64,000 nt of DNA, from assembly GCA_963701335.1 (NCBI GenBank), contig CAVOZR010000001.1, positions 1,259,620 through 1,323,619 of the forward strand. Direction: 5' to 3'. The stretch comes from an uncultured Gammaproteobacteria bacterium. Lineage in GTDB: Bacteria; Pseudomonadota; Gammaproteobacteria; Steroidobacterales; Woeseiaceae. A program made the position numbers and the translations under genes. Of this stretch, positions 11,665 through 33,066 are shown in pieces; within the stretch, counting starts at the first letter, position 1, and every line of letters begins with the position of its first letter. The notes under the pieces were generated by a model, which was not told the DNA's origin, searched no databases, and was given only the letters and a program-made list of their open reading frames with translations.

Positions 11665-12629
11665 TTCCCGAAGAATGCCCTTGTCAGTCTTATTTGATCT
11701 GACGCCCGATCGACTCGCACGACCTCGCGACGGAAATCGTCAGCGTCGTGCAGGCTGTTGCAATACCAGGTCAGATGTTTGCGAGCCACTCGTACGCCGG
11801 TCACGTCCCCATAAAACCGGTGAAGCTCGTTCAAGTGGCCGATCATAATATCACGCAATTCGTTTTTTTCTAGCTCGGTATTTTCCGCAGCCGGATTCAC
11901 AAGCGTCGCGAGTTCGCGAAAGATCCAGGGGCGGCCCTGAGCGGCGCGACCGATCATCAAACCGTCTGCGTTAGTTACGCGCAGTACTTCAAGCGACTTC
12001 TCTAAAGTCGTTATATCTCCGTTTGCTATCACGGGTATGGACACGGCAGCCTTGGCTGCGGCAATGGTCTCGTATTCTGCTTCGCCGTCGTAGCGGCAGG
12101 CGCGCGTACGTCCGTGAATGGCCAGTGCTTGGATGCCACTGTCTTCGGCTATGCGTGCGACAGCGATCGCATTACGGTGCCGGGTGTCCCAGCCTGTGCG
12201 GATTTTCAGGGTGACCGGGACCTGTACCGCCGTCACCACGGCCTGCAGGATGGCTGCCACCAGTTTTTCGTCCTTCAGCAAGGCGGAGCCCGCGAGTTTC
12301 CGACAGACTTTTTTCGCGGGACAGCCCATGTTGATATCGATAATCTGTGCGCCGCGTTTCACGCAGGCCCTGGCGGCCGTCGCCAGTTGCCCGGCTTCGG
12401 AACCGGCGATCTGCACCGCCACCGGCTCTGCATCGAGGTCGAGATCGAGTCGCCGCTGCGATTTCGGCGTCGTCCACAGGCCGATATCCGCCGTGGTCAT
12501 CTCGGAGGTCGTCATGCCCGCGCCAAACTGGCGGCACAGCCGACGAAAAGGCGCGTCGCTTACGCCGGCCATGGGAGCGAGTACGAACGGGCTGGACAGC
12601 TCGTAGGGCCCGATTTTCAGTGCTTTCAT
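11661..12629 (-). CDS. dusB: tRNA-dihydrouridine synthase B
   Basis: It has a Dus TIM-barrel (LAPMAGVSD, DINMGCP, HGRT) and sits in the conserved dusB-fis pair. Confidence 0.9.
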   Translation of the reverse strand: MKALKIGPYELSSPFVLAPMAGVSDAPFRRLCRQFGAGMTTSEMTTADIGLWTTPKSQRRLDLDLDAEPVAVQIAGSEAGQLATAARACVKRGAQIIDINMGCPAKKVCRKLAGSALLKDEKLVAAILQAVVTAVQVPVTLKIRTGWDTRHRNAIAVARIAEDSGIQALAIHGRTRACRYDGEAEYETIAAAKAAVSIPVIANGDITTLEKSLEVLRVTNADGLMIGRAAQGRPWIFRELATLVNPAAENTELEKNELRDIMIGHLNELHRFYGDVTGVRVARKHLTWYCNSLHDADDFRREVVRVDRASDQIRLTRAFFGN

Positions 12630-15049
12630 TTGAAATTGGGAATGTGGCAGCGAAGACGTTTGTCCGGCTGACGATAGCAGACCTGCAGCTTGTAACCCGT
12701 AGCCGCCTCGGGCGGCGATTCGATCTTGATAACGGCGGTGAAATTGTTGCCCGGCCGCACCATCTCGCCGGGATCCAGGTCGTCCGTCAGGTAGGCGCCC
12801 GGATCGAGCGTCCTGTTGCCAATGGTTTCTTCGAAACGGTCGGTCAGGGAAACGTTGATGAGCGGGTAGGGGAGCGGCTCCCCGGCGGTATTGCCGATTC
12901 GTGAGATTACGGTAAGCGAGTCACCCTCTTCATCCGGGATCTCTCTCTTGGCTTCAAAGCGCCAGGCCGTCACGTCCCATGCCGGCGCCAGGGGCATGCC
13001 GATGGCCCGGTACAGTGGGCCGACAGCCTCGTTGAACGCCGGAATCCTGGCAAGCGCCTCGCGTGACTGATGCAGCACCTGCACCACGAGCAGCAGGGCG
13101 AGTGCCGCTGCGGCAGCGGCCATGCTGCGTCTCCTGCCGCTGCCCGATCTGCCGTCCGCCTCGGATGCTCTCTCCTGCCTGGCCTGCTCGACGAGTTCGG
13201 CGGCGGCTTTGATGTCCGCCCTGCGTTTTTCCTTTTCCAGCGCCGTCTGGACGAATTCGCCCTCCATGACGATCGACTCGAAGCCGGTACCGGTATCTTC
13301 GCCGGCCTGTTGTTCAATCGATTCGGGACGCCCTTCCGCGGCACCTTTTTCGGAAAAGACAATCGTCGAGGTGAATCCGTCTTCGTCCTGGACAGCCATG
13401 CTCAGCAGATCCTGATCGATCAGGAGGTTGAGCGTCTGCTCCTCTTCGCTTTGCGGCGGGACCACGTGCTGTGTGTCCCCGGGCGATTCCGAATCGGAAG
13501 ACTCGGGCACATCGTCAGGTTCAATCTCGTCGCCATCGAGATCGTCTTCCAGAACGATTTCGTCGTCCTGAATTGCATCATCGATGCCCGACCGTGCAGC
13601 GTCCTGGGCCTTGAAGAAGCCCTTGTCGAATACGTCGGATTGCGCCTCGAGCTCGGCCATCGCTTTTTCGATGGAGCCAAAAACCAGTGGCGCTTCATCG
13701 ACGTCATCGATCTCGATCTCGATCTCGTCCTCGTCCTCGTCCTCGTCCAGTCCGTGGCGCCTTGTTGCTTCCACATCCTCGAGCTGCGACGGGGTCTCTG
13801 GCGCTTCGCTTTGCGTGTCGTCTGCTCGCAGCACCTCGCCTGCTTCGATCGCGAGTTCAATGTCCGGGACATCTCCGCTTGTTTCGGTTTCGCCGCCGAC
13901 GCCTGCTTCGGGCGCCGACCCGGATTCGCCGGCAAGCACCATCTCGGGGACTTCGCCGGTCTCCTCGTCGGTTTCTTCTGCTACGTCGACGCTCTCGGAT
14001 TCGGGCATTTCGCCGGTTTCGTCTGCCAACTCCAGCCCGGCTGCCTCGTCTTCTTGCGCGTCGTCGAATACCTCACCCGTGCCGATCGATACAGCCTGGT
14101 CAGCGTTGTCGTCGTCTTCCTCGCTTGCTTCGGCGTGGCGCGCATGGAGACCGCTAAGGTCGATACCCATCGCCTCTGCCTGCAGGGCAAACTGTGTATC
14201 CATATCCAACGGCGCTGCATCTTCCCTGCCGAGGGCAGGCTCGGAATCTCCATCGTCCGCGGACAGCTCGTCTTCCAGGGCCGAGAGCTCCGCGTCGAGC
14301 GGCGGCACGTAAGGCCTGGGTGGCTCGCTGAACTCGCCGAGGATATCGGCCCACTCATCGGGGTCGCCCAGCGCGATATCGACCGGTAAGTCATCGATAT
14401 CCCTGGGGTGCGCTGCCCGAGGTTCAGGCCCGCTGTGCGACTCCGACGCGTTGGCCTCGGCGTTTATCGACGAATGCGTGGCTGGATCTCCGAGGTCGAA
14501 GTCCTCCGGTAGCGGCGTATTGTCGTCGAAACGCAGCTCTTCGACCGGCGTATCTTCAGGTGCATTCGCGGACTCTTCGAAGATTTCACGCGCCTCGATG
14601 TTGTTCGGCGTCTTGGTCAGGAATTGATCGACCGGTGTCGGTGATTCGTCGAGAAGCTCATCAACGCCGCGTCCGGCCAATTCGTCGGCACCGGGCAGCT
14701 CACCGTCGTCTGCTTCATCGTCATCGAGCACGCGCCATTCGACACCGGTATCCTCGATTCGAATGTCGGAGCCGGCAAGCTCGTCGAGAGTCTTCAGCAA
14801 CGCGGCGCCCTGGTCGGCGGAAATCGCCATCGGAGGGCCTTCCTTGGGCTGCCGTGGCTCCGGTGTCAGTTCTGGCAGCGGCGCCTTCGCTTCCTTCGCT
14901 GCCGGCTTTGCCGGCATTGATTCGGAGAGGTATTCGAGGGCATTGAACGCAAGTCCACAGCCACCGCAACGCACCTTGCCGGCGGCCTGTTTCAGGACGT
15001 CCGCGGTTACGCGAAACGCGGTGCTGCAATCAGGACATTGCGTGTACAT
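12626..15049 (-). CDS. MJ0042-type zinc-ribbon / DUF3426-like protein with a very large acidic low-complexity insert
   Basis: The N-terminus reads MYTQCPDCSTAFRV...VRCGGCGLAFNALEYL. About 550 aa are D/E-rich, followed by one TM segment and a C-terminal beta-rich domain. The gene occupies the conserved slot between prmA and dusB. Confidence 0.7.
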   Translation of the reverse strand: MYTQCPDCSTAFRVTADVLKQAAGKVRCGGCGLAFNALEYLSESMPAKPAAKEAKAPLPELTPEPRQPKEGPPMAISADQGAALLKTLDELAGSDIRIEDTGVEWRVLDDDEADDGELPGADELAGRGVDELLDESPTPVDQFLTKTPNNIEAREIFEESANAPEDTPVEELRFDDNTPLPEDFDLGDPATHSSINAEANASESHSGPEPRAAHPRDIDDLPVDIALGDPDEWADILGEFSEPPRPYVPPLDAELSALEDELSADDGDSEPALGREDAAPLDMDTQFALQAEAMGIDLSGLHARHAEASEEDDDNADQAVSIGTGEVFDDAQEDEAAGLELADETGEMPESESVDVAEETDEETGEVPEMVLAGESGSAPEAGVGGETETSGDVPDIELAIEAGEVLRADDTQSEAPETPSQLEDVEATRRHGLDEDEDEDEIEIEIDDVDEAPLVFGSIEKAMAELEAQSDVFDKGFFKAQDAARSGIDDAIQDDEIVLEDDLDGDEIEPDDVPESSDSESPGDTQHVVPPQSEEEQTLNLLIDQDLLSMAVQDEDGFTSTIVFSEKGAAEGRPESIEQQAGEDTGTGFESIVMEGEFVQTALEKEKRRADIKAAAELVEQARQERASEADGRSGSGRRRSMAAAAAALALLLVVQVLHQSREALARIPAFNEAVGPLYRAIGMPLAPAWDVTAWRFEAKREIPDEEGDSLTVISRIGNTAGEPLPYPLINVSLTDRFEETIGNRTLDPGAYLTDDLDPGEMVRPGNNFTAVIKIESPPEAATGYKLQVCYRQPDKRLRCHIPNFK

Positions 15050-15066: not shown

Positions 15067-15957
15067 CTATCTCTTTTTGCCGGTCAGCCGTGACCAGGTC
15101 TGGCCGTCCTGCTCCCTGAAGGCGGGTTCGTCGAACCTGATCCAGGGCGCGTAAGCAGCCATAACGGTGGGCGCTTGTTCACATAATACGCCGGATAGGG
15201 CAAGCATACCGTCGCGTGCAACGGTTGATGTGACGGATTCGGCAAACTGAACAAGAGGACCCGCAAGGATATTCGCAACGACGACATCGAAGCAGCCCTC
15301 AATATCATCGACATTGCCCACAACTCGGAGGTGTGTAGAAACGCCGTTGCGATCCGCGTTTTGAGAGGTTGCCAGCAATGCCTGGCTGTCAATGTCCATC
15401 GCCATGGCCGAGGCGCAGCCGAGTTTCAGGCCCGCTATGGCCAGAACGCCGGATCCACAACCGTAGTCCAGCATCGTTTTCCCCTGCAGGGCCAAACCGT
15501 CGAGCCACTCAAGGCAAAGCGCCGTGGTGGCGTGGGTGCCCGTGCCAAAGGCGAGTCCGGGGTCGAGCCGAATGATGACCGCCTCGTCGTGTTCGATCGT
15601 GCTGTCGCCCGGGCTGATCCACAGCCGCCGGCCAAACCGCATCGGCCCGAAATCCCTGAGCCATTCGCGTTCCCACACGCGATTCTCGAGTCCTTCTATG
15701 TGGTAGGCCGGCAATCGGGTAAGTTTCAGCGTCGTCAGCAGCTCCGCCTCGAGGCCTTCAATGTCGGCATCTGCAGAAAACAGGCCGGTAATTCGCGTGT
15801 CGGTCCATAGCGGTGTCTCGCCCGGACCGGGTTCGAGGACCGGATTATCGCCGGCGTCGCTCAGCGTTACGGACCAGGCGCCGTGCCGATTGAACAGGTC
15901 CTCGACGGTGCCTGGATCCAGCTTGTCTAGCTTCATGACAAACTGCAGCCAGTCCAC
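15067..15957 (-). CDS. prmA: Ribosomal protein L11 methyltransferase PrmA
   Basis: The GTG start gives VDWLQFVMKL, aligned to the E. coli MPWIQLKL start. FGTGTHATT and DYGCGSGVLAI SAM motifs are present. The listed ORF extension to 16251 overlaps accC and was rejected. Confidence 0.9.
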   Translation of the reverse strand: MDWLQFVMKLDKLDPGTVEDLFNRHGAWSVTLSDAGDNPVLEPGPGETPLWTDTRITGLFSADADIEGLEAELLTTLKLTRLPAYHIEGLENRVWEREWLRDFGPMRFGRRLWISPGDSTIEHDEAVIIRLDPGLAFGTGTHATTALCLEWLDGLALQGKTMLDYGCGSGVLAIAGLKLGCASAMAMDIDSQALLATSQNADRNGVSTHLRVVGNVDDIEGCFDVVVANILAGPLVQFAESVTSTVARDGMLALSGVLCEQAPTVMAAYAPWIRFDEPAFREQDGQTWSRLTGKKR

Positions 15958-15974
15958 CGCTCCGTCGCTCCCGA

Positions 15975-17318
15975 TCAAACCAGTCCGAGTCGTTTCTCGA
16001 GGTAGTGGATATCGGTCCCGCCAGCCTGGAATGCAGCGTGCTGGAATATTTCCTGGTGCAACGGAACGTTCGTCTTGATGCCTTCGATGACGATTTCGTT
16101 CAGCGCGCTTCGCATTCGTGCGAACGCGGCATTGCGGTTTGCACCGTGTGCAATCAGCTTGCCGATCATCGAGTCGTAATAGGGCGGTACCTTGTAGCCG
16201 CTGTAAATGTGGCTCTCGACGCGAACCCCAGGGCCGCCGGGTGAATGCCACAAGGTGACCAGTCCGGGCGACGGCATGAAGGTGCGCGGATCCTCCGCGT
16301 TAATGCGGCACTCGATCGCATGCCCCTGGATCTTGATTTCATCCTGCGAGAACTGCAGTTTCTCGCCATTGGCAATCCTGAGCTGTTCGCGAACAATATC
16401 GACACCGGTAATCATCTCGGTGACAGGATGCTCGACCTGCAGCCGCGTGTTCATCTCGATGAAGTAGAACTCGTTGTTTTCATAAAGAAATTCAAACGTC
16501 CCGGCGCTACGGTAGCCGATTTCCTGGCAGGCCTTGACGCAGCGCTCACCGATACGATTGCGTTGCTCCTCGCTGATGCCCGGCGCCGGCGCCTCCTCGA
16601 TGACCTTTTGGTGGCGCCGCTGCATTGAACAGTCGCGTTCCCCGAGGTGTATGGCATTGCCATGCGTGTCGGCCAGCACCTGAAACTCCACGTGCCTCGG
16701 TGTTTCGAGGAATTTCTCCATGTAGACCATATCGTTGCTGAACGCGGCGCGGGCTTCTGCTTTGGTCACCGTAATCGCAGCGGTCAACGATGCCTCGGAG
16801 TGCACGACGCGCATGCCGCGACCGCCGCCGCCGCCGGACGCCTTGATGATGATCGGATAACCGATGTCACGAGCGAGACGCATGTTCTCGTCAGGATCAT
16901 CACCAAGCGGCCCGTCAGATCCCGGTACACAGGGGACGCCGGCGGCCTTCATCGCCCTGATGGCGGACACCTTGTCGCCCATCAGGCGTATCGACTCTGC
17001 TTTGGGTCCGACGAATGTGAAGCCACTCGACTCAACGCGCTCTGCGAAGTCTGCGTTCTCCGACAGGAAGCCATAGCCCGGGTGAATCCCCGTGGCGTCC
17101 GTGACCTCGGCCGCGCTGATGATCGCCGGCATGTTGAGGTAGCTCTCCGAAGAGGCGGGTGGCCCGATGCAGACTGTTTCGTCGGCGAGCAACACGTGCT
17201 TCAGGTTATTGTCGGCGGTCGAGTGCACGGCGACCGTCTTGATGCCCATTTCGCGGCAGGCCCGTAGTATACGAAGCGCGATCTCACCCCGGTTCGCAAT
17301 GACAATCTTGTCCAGCAT
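15975..17318 (-). CDS. accC: Acetyl-CoA carboxylase biotin carboxylase subunit
   Basis: It starts [21 protein letters not shown] and has the ATP-grasp fold. It lies downstream of accB. Confidence 0.95.
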
Positions 17319-28636: not shown

Positions 28637-28969
28637 ATGCAGGACATGCGTCGGCGGCTGCTGCAACTGCGTTCTGAACTCCAGGCGGAAGCAGAATCGG
28701 CCGAAGGATCCACCGATATCGTCGAACTTGATCAGTCAACGGTGGGTCGTTTGTCGCGGATGGATGCGATGCAGGCCCAGGCAATGGCCAAGGCGTCCGA
28801 GCAGCGGCGCCAGGCCACCTTGCAGAGGATCGCCGCGGCACTCCGGCGTATCGACGACGGCGAATATGGCGTCTGCCGTGGATGCGCTGAGCCCATCAAT
28901 CAGAAGCGCCTGGACGTTGATCCCGCGGTGCTGCTCTGCGTTGACTGCGCGAGTCGCTCAGAACGATAG
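28637..28969 (+). CDS. TraR/DksA-family C4 zinc-finger protein
   Basis: A coiled N-terminus precedes CRGCAEPI...LLCVDCAS. Confidence 0.75.
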   Translation: MQDMRRRLLQLRSELQAEAESAEGSTDIVELDQSTVGRLSRMDAMQAQAMAKASEQRRQATLQRIAAALRRIDDGEYGVCRGCAEPINQKRLDVDPAVLLCVDCASRSER

Positions 28970-29003: not shown

Positions 29004-29032
29004 TTGTGTTTTGCGGCGCTGGCAAGTAATTT
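29004..29032 (+). promoter_or_regulatory. Sigma70-like promoter candidate for the ileS leader (TTGTGT-N17-TAATTT)
   Basis: The hexamers and 17-nt spacer were read directly. The implied transcription start lies just 5' of the predicted T-box Stem I. Confidence 0.35.
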
Positions 29033-29039
29033 CCCCGGC

Positions 29040-29315
29040 AAGACGCTGAAGGGGACAAACAGGCAGCCCGCTTGGGCCAAAGCGACCGGAGGATGGTGAG
29101 AGCTCCGGGCTCGAGTCTGCCGAATATCACCCCGGAGTCGCCGCCCGAAAGGACCTTCCGAGTAAGTGCGGCCGAGTGGCTCACGAGACGAGCGACGGAC
29201 CCTGGCTTCTGGCCAAAGGTCCCGAGGCGGCAGTGGATGTGAGCCGCGAAACCGGGTGGTACCGCGACGAACAGTGATCGCCCCGGGTGCAGTTGATGCG
29301 CCCGGGGCGTTTTTG
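29040..29315 (+). promoter_or_regulatory. T-box riboswitch leader, Ile-specific (AUC specifier), transcription-attenuation type
   Basis: The T-box sequence GGGUGGUACCGCG is at 29254-29266. The antiterminator helices are CCGGG 29252-56 / CCCGG 29282-86 and GCG 29264-66 / CGC 29279-81, flanking the 7-nt bulge UGGUACC. Stem I has an AG bulge AGCGA (29081-85) and a distal helix 29086-91 / 29103-08 whose loop contains GGUGAGA. The specifier loop reads GAA-AUC-A (29122-29129). A competing terminator follows. Confidence 0.85.
29279..29315 (+). terminator. Intrinsic terminator of the T-box leader
   Basis: CGCCCCGGG (29279-87) pairs with CCCGGGGCG (29301-09), followed by T5. Its 5' arm is shared with the antiterminator. 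Confidence 0.85.
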
Positions 29316-29332
29316 TATTTGAGGATCCTATT

Positions 29333-32300
29333 TTGGCAGCGAACAAAGCCGTGTTTAAGGAAGTGAATGGTCGTTACAACGGTCCGGAACTCGAGAGAGA
29401 GGTTCTCGACTTCTGGCGGGAGCACGACGTCTTCGCGAAGACGCTGCAGGCAACGAAAGACGGCCCGCAATTCAGCTTCAACGAAGGGCCGCCTACCGCG
29501 AACGGCAAGCCTGGCATTCATCACGTGCTGGCGCGTAGTTTCAAGGACGTCTTTCCGCGCTACAAGACGATGCGCGGCTACCACGTGCCGCGGAAGGCGG
29601 GCTGGGATACGCACGGCCTGCCGGTGGAGCACGAGGTCGAGAAAGAGCTGGGAATTTTCGACAAGCAGGAAATCGAGGAAAAAGTCGGTATTGCCGAATT
29701 TACAAGGCGCTGTCGTGAATCCGTCATGCGCTATATCGGCGACTGGGAGAAGATGACCGAGCGCATGGGTTTCTGGGTCAACCTGGATGAAGCCTACTAC
29801 ACGCTCAACAACAGCTATATCGAATCCGTCTGGAACCTGCTGGCAAAGATCTGGGACAAGGATCTCATCTACCGAGGTTACAAGGTCGTTCCCTACGATC
29901 CACGCATCGGCGCGACGTTGTCTTCCCATGAGCTGGCGCTCGGCTACAAGGAGGTCGACGATCCATCGATCACGGTACGCTTCAAGCTCGCCGATGAAGA
30001 CGATAGCTACTTCCTGGTCTGGACAACCACCCCCTGGACCTTGCCGTCGAACCTGGCGCTGGCCGTTGGCGAAGGCATCGACTACAGCTACTGCGAGTCG
30101 CATGGCCAGACGCTGATCGTTGCGGAGGCGTTACGTGAAGCGGTGTTCCGGGACGTCGAGCACGAAGTCGTCAAGACCGTGAAAGGCGCTGCACTCGTCG
30201 GCACGCGATACGAGCAGATGTTCGACTACCTCGAATGCGATGCGCCGAACGCATTCACCGTCCTCGCGGCGGATTTCGTCAGTACCGAGGATGGCACCGG
30301 TATCGTGCACACGGCACCCGCCTATGGCGTTGACGATCTTGCGCTTGGACAGGCGTACGACCTGCCCGTCGTTCACGGGGTCGGCCTCGACGGCCATTTC
30401 GTCGAAACGGTCAAGCCAGTCGCGGGTCTGTTCTTCAAGGATGCAGACAAGATACTCATCCGCCTGCTGAAGGAGCGCGGCATCATGTTCCGCTCCGAGC
30501 GATACACTCACAATTATCCGTTCGGCTGGCGCACCGGCGATCCGATTCTGTACTACGCGAAAAACGCCTGGTACATACGCACCTCGCAGTTTCGCGATCG
30601 CATGGCGGAACTCAACAAGACGATCAACTGGGTGCCTGAGCACATACGCGACGGGCGCTTCGGCAACTGGCTGGAAAACAACGTTGACTGGGCGCTGTCT
30701 CGAGAGCGCTTCTGGGGGACGCCGCTGCCGGTCTGGACCGATGGCAACGACAACTACCTGTGCGTCGGATCCGTTGCCGAACTGGAATCGCTGACCGGCC
30801 GGGAACTCGGCGAACTTGACCTGCATCGACCCGCCGTCGACGAGATCAGTTTCCAGAAAGACGGCAAGACCTGGCAGCGGGTTCCCGAAGTCATCGACTG
30901 CTGGTTCGACTCGGGCGCGATGTCCTACGCCCAGTGGCATTACCCGTTTGAAAACCAGGACAAGTTCGACAAGCATTTTCCCGCCGACTACATTTGCGAG
31001 GCCATCGACCAGACGCGCGGCTGGTTCTACACACTGCACGCGATCGCTACGCTGGTATCGGACAGCGTGGCGTTCAGGAACTGTATTTGCCTGAACCTCA
31101 TTGTCGACAAAGATGGCAAGAAGATGTCGAAATCGGTGGGCAATATCATCGATCCCTATGACGTCTTCGATACTGTCGGGGCTGACGCACTGCGCTGGTA
31201 TTTCCTGGCGCGGCTGTCACCCGATGCGCCCAAGCGAGTCTCCGTTGACATCGTTGCCGACGTGGCCAGCTCCTTCATCAACACGTTCTGGAACACCTAC
31301 AGCTTTTTCGTGCTTTATGCGCGACTCGACGAGGTCGATCTCAGTCGGGACATCCCGGTCGACGAACGGCCGGAAATCGACCGCTGGGCGCTCGCCCTGT
31401 TGCACAAGACGATTACGACGGTTACGGCGTCTCTCGATCATTACGATGCCAGGACGGCGGGCGAAGCGATCGAGGCGTTCGTCGATCAGCTGAGCAACTG
31501 GTATGTTCGGCGGAACCGGCGACGTTTCTGGAAGTCCTCCGATCCGGAAGATACCCAGGCGGCCTATCTGACCCTTTACGAATGCCTCAAGGGGGTCCAT
31601 GAGCTGATGGCGCCATTCGTGCCCTTTCTGGCCGAGAACGTTTATCAGAATCTGGTACGCAGCGTTGACAAAGACGCGCCGGTGTCCGTGCACATGGGCA
31701 ACTGGCCGCACGCCGACCCGTCCTGGAAGAACGATGCCCTGTTGTTCGATATCGATGTCGTGCAGAAGGTCGTCGGTCTCGCCCGTGCGGCGCGTGGCCA
31801 GTCCGGTGTCAGGACGCGACAGCCCTTGTCGAGACTGCTGGTTCGAGCGCCAGACGACGCCTCCGCGCGCGCGCTTGGCAGCCACCAGGAGCAGATACTC
31901 GAGGAGCTGAACGTGAAGTCGATCGAGTTTATCGCACGGGATGCCGGCCTGGTCAGCTATCGCATCAAGCCGAATCTGCCGCGTATCGGCAAGCGCTACG
32001 GCAAGCTGATCCCGGTTATCCGAAAGGCGCTCGAGCAGGCCGACGGCGCGACCATTGCCGCGGCGTCGGCGAACGGCGAGTCATTCGATCTGGCGGCAGG
32101 CGACGAGACGATTACGCTGGAAGCAGACGACGTGCTGGTCGAGACCAGCTCGGCCGAGGGCTACGCCTGCGGCGAAGATGCCGGCTTCCTGACGGCGCTC
32201 GATACCACGCTGACCGACGAACTCGTCAGCGAGGGTCTTGCCCGGGAGATTGTCCGCTCCGTCCAGGATGCCCGAAAACAGGCAGGACTCGAGGTATCCG

Positions 32301-32479
32301 ATCGCATTACGCTGGGCGTGTCCGGCTCCGTGGGGGTGGAAACGGCACTTGCGACCCACAGGGACTACGTCATGAATGAGACCCTCGGGACGAATTGGCA
32401 GGTCGGGCAGAAAAAGCCGCTTTATGTCGGCGACCGACGACTCGGCGAGGAGCACTGGCAAATCGAAATCTCGAAATAG
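29333..32479 (+). CDS. ileS: Isoleucyl-tRNA synthetase, type 2 (long, eukaryote/actinobacterial-like form)
   Basis: The HIGH-type motif is PGIHHVLAR and the KMSKS motif is KKMSKSVGN. The N-terminus VFKEV...LEREVLDFW...FNEGPPTANGKPG resembles my recollection of the Thermus/actinobacterial type-2 N-terminus. The length is 1,048 aa with no C-terminal Zn-finger tail. The listed start is TTG at 29333; an alternative GTG is at 29351. Confidence 0.93.
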   Translation: MAANKAVFKEVNGRYNGPELEREVLDFWREHDVFAKTLQATKDGPQFSFNEGPPTANGKPGIHHVLARSFKDVFPRYKTMRGYHVPRKAGWDTHGLPVEHEVEKELGIFDKQEIEEKVGIAEFTRRCRESVMRYIGDWEKMTERMGFWVNLDEAYYTLNNSYIESVWNLLAKIWDKDLIYRGYKVVPYDPRIGATLSSHELALGYKEVDDPSITVRFKLADEDDSYFLVWTTTPWTLPSNLALAVGEGIDYSYCESHGQTLIVAEALREAVFRDVEHEVVKTVKGAALVGTRYEQMFDYLECDAPNAFTVLAADFVSTEDGTGIVHTAPAYGVDDLALGQAYDLPVVHGVGLDGHFVETVKPVAGLFFKDADKILIRLLKERGIMFRSERYTHNYPFGWRTGDPILYYAKNAWYIRTSQFRDRMAELNKTINWVPEHIRDGRFGNWLENNVDWALSRERFWGTPLPVWTDGNDNYLCVGSVAELESLTGRELGELDLHRPAVDEISFQKDGKTWQRVPEVIDCWFDSGAMSYAQWHYPFENQDKFDKHFPADYICEAIDQTRGWFYTLHAIATLVSDSVAFRNCICLNLIVDKDGKKMSKSVGNIIDPYDVFDTVGADALRWYFLARLSPDAPKRVSVDIVADVASSFINTFWNTYSFFVLYARLDEVDLSRDIPVDERPEIDRWALALLHKTITTVTASLDHYDARTAGEAIEAFVDQLSNWYVRRNRRRFWKSSDPEDTQAAYLTLYECLKGVHELMAPFVPFLAENVYQNLVRSVDKDAPVSVHMGNWPHADPSWKNDALLFDIDVVQKVVGLARAARGQSGVRTRQPLSRLLVRAPDDASARALGSHQEQILEELNVKSIEFIARDAGLVSYRIKPNLPRIGKRYGKLIPVIRKALEQADGATIAAASANGESFDLAAGDETITLEADDVLVETSSAEGYACGEDAGFLTALDTTLTDELVSEGLAREIVRSVQDARKQAGLEVSDRITLGVSGSVGVETALATHRDYVMNETLGTNWQVGQKKPLYVGDRRLGEEHWQIEISK

Positions 32480-32691
32480 CGACAGTTGGCGAACTCTACT
32501 TGCGTGCGATTCGAAAACTCTGCTATAAGAAAGCTGCGCAACATTCTGAAAGATCAGGAGCCGAATGGACTTGCCAGGCCTTGCAGGGGCCGAATGGGCT
32601 ACAGGAGGTGGCCAGCTCCAAGAACAAGAAAAGCGTAAACAATCCGCCGGGAGGACACGGGCGGCGAATACTACGAAACGCTGGAGTCGCA

Positions 32692-33066
32692 ATGACGAAC
32701 CACGTCGAACGCTTCTACGCGGCACTTACCGTGCTCGCGGGTCACGGCCATATAAAACAACGACTTATCAAAGCTTACGAAGAGCACCTCGATGGAATCG
32801 ATGAGGATGAGCTACCGATCGCTATGAAGCAGGCGTTCGTCGATCTGCGTCAGTCCATGCATCAGGTCGCTCCATTGCGCGGCGAGAGTGCGATTTGCGC
32901 TTCGGTCCGCAAGATGTCGCCCGAGGATGCGACAGCGTGCGCGGCTCATGTGGTGGCGCTCTTTAGCGAGCTGTCGAGACTCGGCGACGACAGCGCCCCG
33001 GTGACAATACAACTGGGCGACGGCGAGACGCCCCGCGTTCCGCCATTCCTGATCAAGTCGGTTTGA
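32692..33066 (+). CDS. Hypothetical protein (124 aa), no recognised family
   Basis: The ATG follows CTGGAG. Codon usage is typical of the window, and the upstream part of the listed ORF was rejected. Confidence 0.4.
   Translation: MTNHVERFYAALTVLAGHGHIKQRLIKAYEEHLDGIDEDELPIAMKQAFVDLRQSMHQVAPLRGESAICASVRKMSPEDATACAAHVVALFSELSRLGDDSAPVTIQLGDGETPRVPPFLIKSV

Follow-up and report, generated by a model that had tools for sequence, protein, structure and literature searches.

Can a T-box riboswitch, an element found primarily in Gram-positive bacteria (PMC7270179), be at work in a gammaproteobacterium, and if so, how did it get there? This question is raised by a stretch of 64,000 nucleotides (hereafter the window; positions 1,259,620 to 1,323,619 of contig CAVOZR010000001.1, assembly GCA_963701335.1) that is assigned to an uncultured member of the family Woeseiaceae and contains, upstream of a gene for isoleucyl-tRNA synthetase (IleRS), a leader with the features of an isoleucine-specific T-box. 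More than 95% of T-boxes are found in Firmicutes, and others in Actinobacteria (translational ileS elements), Chloroflexi, Deinococcus-Thermus, and delta-proteobacteria (two leuA cases) (PMC2494555, PMC3766115, TBDB preprint); the spread to other phyla has been ascribed to horizontal transfer (TBDB preprint). An earlier interpretation of this DNA, made from the letters alone (the sequence-only reading), had described a complete Ile T-box here and had remarked that T-boxes are not known as a gammaproteobacterial feature. The searchable literature indeed places them in other groups, and no report linking T-boxes with Gammaproteobacteria or Woeseia was found in it. Our comparative analysis indicates, with a probability of roughly 0.88, that the leader is a functional Ile T-box that controls the downstream gene, a type-2 ileS (ileS2), by antitermination.

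The leader occupies positions 29037-29314 of the window on the forward strand, 18 nt upstream of ileS2. It is a T-box of full length and of the terminator type, and its specifier is AUC (Ile). In a permissive scan, the Rfam T-box model RF00230 matched positions 29037-29288 with a score of 68 bits and with model positions 1-219 all aligned. The E value was 9.4e-15 on the local stretch and 1.3e-12 over both strands of the 64 kb, and no second match with E <= 0.1 was present in the window. A significant match to RF00230, on which the sequence-only reading had made its interpretation depend, was thus obtained, albeit with a score below the gathering score, which is 93 in the Rfam copy used. Because of this difference, the leader is missed by a standard Rfam scan, and a default scan at gathering thresholds returned zero matches in the whole window. 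The scores of related leaders range from 50.6 to 115.8 bits, and two colinear homologous leaders, those of loci L015 (115.8 bits) and L013 (103.8 bits), which are A+T-richer leaders among the relatives, exceed the cut-off. The low score of the window leader, which has a G+C content of 66%, goes together with its G+C-rich composition and insertions and probably reflects these rather than a defective element. The leader is statistically beyond doubt, but annotation that relies on the threshold does not show it. All elements listed in the sequence-only reading were located within a base or two of where it had placed them. The features of the leader and its gene are as follows.

29004-29032, forward strand: putative sigma-70-type promoter (-35 TTGTGT at 29004-29009, 17-nt spacer, -10 TAATTT at 29027-29032; probable transcription start at about 29039-29040).
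29043-29138, forward strand: Stem I, 96 nt (Rfam alignment, invariant residues and covariation across 14 leaders).
29122-29129, forward strand: 3' side of the specifier loop, GAA-U-AUC-A (sequence and Rfam alignment).
29141-29171, forward strand: Stem II, with S-turn residues GAA (29147-29149) and GUA (29162-29164) and a variable apical hairpin.
29173-29193, forward strand: Stem IIA/B pseudoknot (Rfam-based alignment plus added pairing).
29197-29222, forward strand: lineage-specific extra hairpin GGACC...GGUCC, between the pseudoknot and Stem III.
29227-29247, forward strand: Stem III, GCGGC/GCCGC (covariation across 14 leaders).
29252-29286, forward strand: T-box sequence and antiterminator (sequence, Rfam alignment, energy of the named structure).
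29279-29314, forward strand: intrinsic terminator (terminator scan), a G+C-rich hairpin of 12-13 bp at 29279-29309 followed by U5 at 29310-29314.
29321-32479, forward strand: Shine-Dalgarno (SD) sequence GAGGA at 29321-29325 and the ileS2 open reading frame (ORF) with a TTG start at 29333, encoding 1048 aa (Pfam, structure-database comparison).

Related loci (numbered with the prefix L) were collected by scanning species-representative genomes with the window IleRS, which yielded 80 loci, 17 of them gammaproteobacterial. The exact 13-nt T-box core is present upstream of ileS2 in 13 of these 17 loci and in many Chloroflexota loci, and one of the non-carrier loci is truncated. The window leader was aligned with those of 13 further gammaproteobacterial loci from metagenome-assembled genomes (MAGs) of Woeseiaceae, Arenicellales, and others, giving the 14 leaders to which the counts below refer. 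The pairs of the Rfam alignment, with the IIA/B pseudoknot added, were scored on this alignment against controls in which the pairing partners were slid by 1-3 columns and against 500 column shuffles. Standard pairs are formed in 95.1% of the cells, double-sided changes occur in 34 of 47 pairs, and the covariation score is 0.507, versus 33-47%, 10-16 pairs and 0.07-0.13, respectively, in the slid controls; none of the 500 shuffles reached the observed pairing or covariation values. The pairings that had been drawn for Stem I by eye are thus supported by double-sided changes, those of the antiterminator are unbroken, and the survey of relatives suggested in the sequence-only reading has recovered the same leader at the 13 further ileS2 loci.

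In Stem I, 90-100% of the cells pair and double-sided changes were observed in 17 of 20 pairs. Its basal helix contains a GA/K-turn motif, in which UGAA (29047-29050) faces GGA (29134-29136), and the K-turn residues UGA/GA (G12, A13, G99, and A100) are invariant. The long Stem I with an AGCGA bulge and a distal loop, as previously described, was found with the AG bulge AGCGA at 29081-29085, which is also invariant, and the distal loop GAUGGUGAGAG at 29092-29102 (DNA letters GATGGTGAGAG), in which GUG..AG is invariant. The specifier codon AUC (Ile) lies at 29126-29128, as had been read, and is followed by the conserved purine; the loop itself had been given as GAA-AUC-A and is actually GAA-U-AUC-A. 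The one-nucleotide spacer (U) between GAA and the codon agrees with the Rfam consensus, none of the 14 gammaproteobacterial leaders deviates from GAA-N-AUC-A, and the specified amino acid agrees with the downstream IleRS gene. The S-turn sequence in the 5' strand of the specifier loop is an intact AGUA in ten leaders, AAUA in L013, and AACA in the window (29055-29061), L001, and L002.

The elements between Stem I and the antiterminator are also conserved as structures, with double-sided changes in 16 of the 18 counted pairs of Stem II, Stem IIA/B, and Stem III taken together. All seven counted pairs of Stem II show such changes, and its GAA and GUA residues are invariant. The IIA helix (CG..CG, 29173-29174 with 29184-29185) consists of two pairs that never vary. 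The pseudoknot is formed between the loop GCUC (29179-29182) and GAGC (29190-29193); all four of its pairs covary (e.g. GCUC/GAGC, ACCC/GGGU, and GAUCC/GGAUC), and 87.5% of the cells pair. Stem III exhibits double-sided changes in five of five pairs, with 92.9% of the cells pairing. The extra hairpin at 29197-29222 represents a 23-nt insertion relative to the Rfam model. It is present in most leaders (L006 and L013 have none) and shows compensatory changes, as judged by eye from the alignment without a formal count.

The T-box core GGGUGGUACCGCG (GGGTGGTACCGCG in DNA letters) lies at 29254-29266, within an extended conserved stretch AAACCGGGUGGUACCGCG at 29249-29266, and the whole T-box sequence is invariant across the leaders. 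The antiterminator is composed of the helices CCGGG/CCCGG and GCGA/UCGC around the 7-nt bulge UGGUACC (29257-29263), core and bulge both being situated where the sequence-only reading had located them. UGGU in the bulge is complementary to the ACCA end of tRNA and is likewise invariant. The antiterminator helices are never broken in any leader, but since they are nearly invariant, covariation is uninformative for them. The mutually exclusive terminator that had been proposed was called by the terminator scan at 29279-29314, with 12-13 bp and U5. The two structures share positions 29279-29286, the antiterminator's 3' strand serving as the 5' strand of the terminator, and the calculated free energies are -29.7 kcal/mol for the terminator versus -9.5 kcal/mol for the antiterminator. 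The minimum free energy fold of the whole leader contains the terminator hairpin. Throughout the 14 leaders, the sequence that makes up the 3' side of the antiterminator (GCCCCGG) doubles as the 5' strand of a hairpin with a U-tract, i.e. a competing terminator is always present. The leader therefore has the standard T-box arrangement, in which termination is the default and read-through occurs only once the antiterminator is stabilized. In four relatives (L008:737-790, L011:1393-1448, L016:1400-1471, and L017:1376-1476), the terminator loop contains long, near-perfect extra hairpins of up to ~30 bp, which are reminiscent of 'stem Sa', a lineage-specific insertion in the glyS T-boxes of staphylococci (PMC9177973).

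The downstream ileS recognized previously was confirmed by its Pfam domains (tRNA-synt_1, Anticodon_1, and, at the C-terminus, DUF5915) and by its solved relatives, which also revealed a class that had been missed. The best of these relatives are the 1032-aa chains 8c8w, 8c8v, and 8c8u and Thermus 1ILE (~900 bits), followed by eukaryotic cytoplasmic IleRSs (685-719 bits), whereas 8c9f and 1ffy yielded 350-370 bits. We take 8c8w, 8c8v, and 1ILE to be type-2 enzymes and 8c9f and 1ffy to be type-1 enzymes. Judged from these similarities, the window gene is a type-2 (eukaryote-like) ileS. Type-2 IleRSs form the mupirocin-insensitive class, and proteobacteria generally have type 1 (PMC4861432). The TTG start is seven bases past GAGGA. 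A TTG start after a good GAGGA/GGAG SD sequence was also observed in L001-L004, L009, and L017, and ATG in L013 and L015. An exact-sequence look-up of the IleRS protein returned no record, probably because the TTG start had been translated as L. The SD sequence lies 3' of the terminator, outside both alternative helices, and control would therefore be transcriptional. With its U-tract terminator and its SD sequence outside the switch, the element is of the transcriptional, long-Stem-I type, unlike the translational actinobacterial ileS T-boxes, and this agrees with the earlier classification.

From these features, we infer the following course of tRNA binding, charge sensing, and read-through. 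Transcription would begin at approximately position 29040, and Stem I would capture tRNA-Ile(GAU), with AUC pairing with the anticodon and the platform of the AG bulge and distal loop stacking on the tRNA elbow. Bacterial tRNA-Ile(GAU) generally carries A73, the discriminator base to which the UGGU bulge is complementary. The unblocked NCCA end of an uncharged tRNA would pair with UGGU and stabilize the weak antiterminator, resulting in read-through into ileS2. With a charged tRNA, the stronger terminator with its U5 would form, and transcription would stop at approximately 29314. In this way, IleRS synthesis would be placed under negative feedback from the charging of tRNA-Ile.

Several observations weigh against this interpretation. 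The RF00230 score of 68 bits is under the gathering score, the 5' S-turn of the specifier loop is AACA in place of AGUA in the window and its two closest relatives, and the F-box is conserved in part only (CGAGA versus CGUUA). A tRNA search of the 64-kb window found no tRNA gene, neither for the cognate tRNA-Ile with its A73 nor for any other tRNA. The promoter that had been proposed, TTGTGT-N17-TAATTT, agrees with only 6 of 12 consensus positions and was not called by a consensus promoter scan. What stands of that proposal is its position and key bases, cTTGt-N17-TAnnnT being kept in 12-13 of the 14 leaders; this conserved pattern is a reasonable candidate start signal, with which the transcript would begin at the base of Stem I. 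The low score and the degenerate S-turn would also be expected if the T-box were an inherited, non-regulating relic of a transferred gene, with constitutive read-through or some other form of control, and the related gammaproteobacteria represented by L010, L012, and L014 do manage without a T-box. However, a dead leader would decay, and here the helices have been kept by compensatory changes across 14 lineages with IleRS identities of 62-98%, and neither the specifier nor the UGGU bulge nor the competing terminator has been lost in any of them, which makes a relic improbable. Tools other than tRNA-directed antitermination are known: leader-peptide attenuators are typical of gammaproteobacterial amino-acid operons (PMC3766115), and the ileS T-boxes of actinobacteria act on translation. 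Nevertheless, ribosome-mediated attenuation at an Ile-codon-rich leader peptide and translational sequestration of the ribosome-binding site are both highly improbable here. An ORF check of the leader found no small ORF with more than one Ile codon, and attenuation by a leader peptide was rejected for want of an Ile-rich one; GAGGA is part of neither helix, and the strong intrinsic terminator has been conserved together with its U-tract.

It might also be argued that the host, rather than the mechanism, is mistaken, i.e. that a chimeric or misbinned contig from Chloroflexota, Firmicutes, or another T-box bearer has been taken for gammaproteobacterial DNA. The related loci are all from MAGs, whose taxonomic labels depend on binning, which is a further point against our interpretation, and Proteobacteria do not usually have an IleRS of this type (PMC4861432). 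On the other hand, the T-box lies in the middle of 64 kb of even composition (55-64% GC) that contains dusB-fis-purH-purD (with a recognizable Fis sequence), accC, and dsbD. These genes, together with the labels of the nearest contigs, bear out the gammaproteobacterial context previously deduced from synteny. The closest IleRS (98% identity) is encoded on a contig deposited as Woeseiaceae, a family of Gammaproteobacteria, and 16 further relatives with 62-90% identity are labelled as Woeseiaceae, Chromatiales, Arenicellales, Acidiferrobacteraceae, Gammaproteobacteria, or Pseudomonadota. The same ileS2 clade thus recurs under gammaproteobacterial labels in 17 independent assemblies from different studies, and in one of them, a 2.4-Mb contig carries the gene flanked by ribF and lspA. 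The genes flanking the locus are syntenic among the Woeseiaceae loci, those 3' of ileS2 being shared by L001, L002, L004, L005, and L006. These data support a genuinely gammaproteobacterial origin of the window, and we give practically no credence to an artefact of assembly or binning.

As to how the element came to be there, a neighbour-joining (NJ) tree of 81 IleRS2 proteins with 100 bootstrap replicates recovered the gammaproteobacterial clade (18 sequences) as monophyletic in 100 of 100 replicates. In 45 replicates, its sister was a small group of Herpetosiphon, Ktedonobacter, and Pyrinomonadaceae, and in most others it was a larger group, mostly one dominated by Chloroflexota. The tree was built by NJ alone and its sister group is unstable, with no grouping recovered in more than 45 of 100 replicates; the placement of the donor is accordingly tentative, and this also has to be counted against our account. 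An nhmmer profile of the 14 leaders, used to locate T-boxes in the 80 ileS2 loci, detected one in front of the gene in 34 of 63 non-gammaproteobacterial loci, mostly from Chloroflexota, with a few from Clostridia and one from Actinomycetota, and most of these have terminators. Their profile scores were 19-84 bits versus 136-201 bits within the gammaproteobacterial group. The most likely scenario that these sequence comparisons suggest is a single horizontal transfer of the T-box together with ileS2 into an ancestor of a gammaproteobacterial group including Woeseiaceae and Arenicellales, with the direction of transfer and a donor near Chloroflexota, in which T-boxes in front of ileS2 are common, being deduced from the same comparisons. 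The cassette would have been kept under selection since then, with some descendants losing the switch. That the cassette looks horizontally acquired explains its odd host and makes its presence there less surprising.

Three members of the gammaproteobacterial clade, L010, L012, and L014, were found by profile and Rfam scans to have no T-box at ileS2. In L014 (532-5155), from a MAG with a 2.4-Mb contig, ileS2 lies directly between ribF and lspA; it has taken the place of the native type-1 gene there, and the switch has been lost. The ileS2 frame of this locus contains three internal stops, probably long-read indel errors. In Oceanococcus, another gammaproteobacterium (L052), ileS2 groups with those of Rhodothermales and Balneolales and has no T-box, and is a second, independent gammaproteobacterial acquisition.

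A speculative role for the cassette is that of an inducible self-protection device in place of a housekeeping gene. An inhibitor would block a fast type-1 IleRS encoded elsewhere in the genome, uncharged tRNA-Ile would cause read-through, and the insensitive IleRS2 would be produced. We consider this role possible but rather unlikely. The location of the window ileS2 outside the ribF-lspA operon is compatible with it, whereas in L014, ileS2 has replaced ileS1 in that operon and has no T-box, which suggests that, in this lineage at least, IleRS2 is the only such enzyme. If such a role were true, a tRNA-sensing riboswitch would serve a Gram-negative bacterium of marine sediments as a sensor of mupirocin- or thiomarinol-like antibiotics from neighbouring bacteria.

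The window ileS2 is not in the ribF-ileS-lspA context that is usual for Gammaproteobacteria. Its upstream neighbours encode DsbA, an alpha/beta hydrolase, and a 110-aa DksA/TraR-type zinc-finger protein, and it is followed by a conserved ORF without family match and a polyketide-cyclase-like gene. The two genes adjoining the cassette are as follows.

28637-28969, forward strand: DksA/TraR-type C4 zinc-finger protein, 110 aa, directly 5' of the T-box promoter; conserved among the gammaproteobacterial loci in L001 only.
32395-33066, forward strand: ORF 3' of ileS2 without Pfam match, with 48-97% identity in L001, L002, L004, L005, and L006.

As annotated, the latter ORF overlaps the end of ileS2, and its true start is therefore probably later. 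In L015 (549-1500; an Arenicellales MAG), a gene of ~214 aa, glutathione S-transferase-like by eye, is located between the T-box terminator and ileS2, so that the switch would control a two-gene operon there. In L010 (5732-5814; an Acidiferrobacteraceae MAG), an S-adenosylhomocysteine riboswitch (RF01057; 48.4 bits, cut-off 37) is found 3' of ileS2. Elsewhere in the window, an 807-aa protein whose only family match is an MJ0042-type zinc finger at the N-terminus is encoded at 12626-15049 (reverse strand), between dusB and an ORF at 15067-16251 (reverse strand) that precedes accC.

The leader has every structural feature of the T-box class and only its score lies below the curated value, which indicates a known kind of element in an unexpected host and not a new mechanism. 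The mechanism is canonical, and the novelty lies in the host lineage and in the evidence for a joint transfer of a gene and its riboswitch across phyla; relatives above the Rfam threshold may already be machine-annotated in databases. T-boxes have been regarded as a device of Gram-positive bacteria and, as drug targets, are being pursued for their specificity to these. That view now has to accommodate a T-box lineage that is conserved and apparently functional in two or more gammaproteobacterial orders. Such a lineage suggests that a complex tRNA-sensing RNA can cross phyla with its target gene, apparently working with foreign transcription machinery and tRNA, and it offers a natural starting point for the study and engineering of T-box control in Gram-negative hosts. 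Furthermore, the curated Rfam threshold misses G+C-rich T-boxes, leading to under-reporting by standard annotation.

Among known systems, the leader shares the complete plan of the class I T-boxes of Firmicutes, such as the Bacillus subtilis tyrS and ileS leaders (RF00230): the K-turn, the specifier loop with its purine, the AG bulge and distal loop, the Stem II S-turn, the IIA/B pseudoknot, Stem III, AANNNGGGUGGNACCGCG, the antiterminator with a 7-nt bulge, the competing terminator, and a specifier that agrees with the regulated aminoacyl-tRNA synthetase. It differs from them in its Gram-negative host, its G+C-rich leader, the extra hairpin, the degenerate AGUA, and the type-2 ileS target. 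Chloroflexota ileS T-boxes, reported in Dehalococcoides and Anaerolineae (Wels et al. 2008, PMC2494555), are likewise Ile-specific, precede type-2 ileS genes, have the same GGGUGGUACCGCG core, and mostly possess terminators. The Chloroflexota IleRS2s are the nearest non-gammaproteobacterial relatives of the window IleRS (~50% identity), but their leaders give 30-64 bits with the hidden Markov model of the gammaproteobacterial leaders, so that the similarity is moderate.

The actinobacterial ileS T-boxes, described as translational, with an ultrashort Stem I and a sequestered SD sequence in the account of Sherwood et al. (2015) given by the TBDB preprint, share Ile specificity, a type-2 ileS target, and the same logic of the T-box bulge. 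Their Stem I is truncated and presents the specifier in a hairpin loop, whereas the window leader has a 96-nt Stem I with an elbow platform, and a U-tract terminator. The delta-proteobacterial leuA T-boxes of Geobacter and Pelobacter, which are sporadic and ascribed to horizontal transfer (PMC2494555), provide a precedent within Proteobacteria; they are specific for Leu and have a biosynthetic target, whereas the T-box described here is gammaproteobacterial, Ile-specific, directed to an aminoacyl-tRNA synthetase gene, and kept across a multi-order clade. In Priestia megaterium, a T-box precedes a mupirocin-insensitive ileS2 that is induced 70-fold by mupirocin, with ileS1 serving as the housekeeping gene, and the proposed route runs from uncharged tRNA-Ile through both CodY-type stringent-response derepression and the T-box (bioRxiv 10.1101/2022.02.09.479832). 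The gammaproteobacterial cassette has the same pairing of a T-box with a type-2 gene in a host in which, unlike in Pri. megaterium, CodY-type control is not expected.

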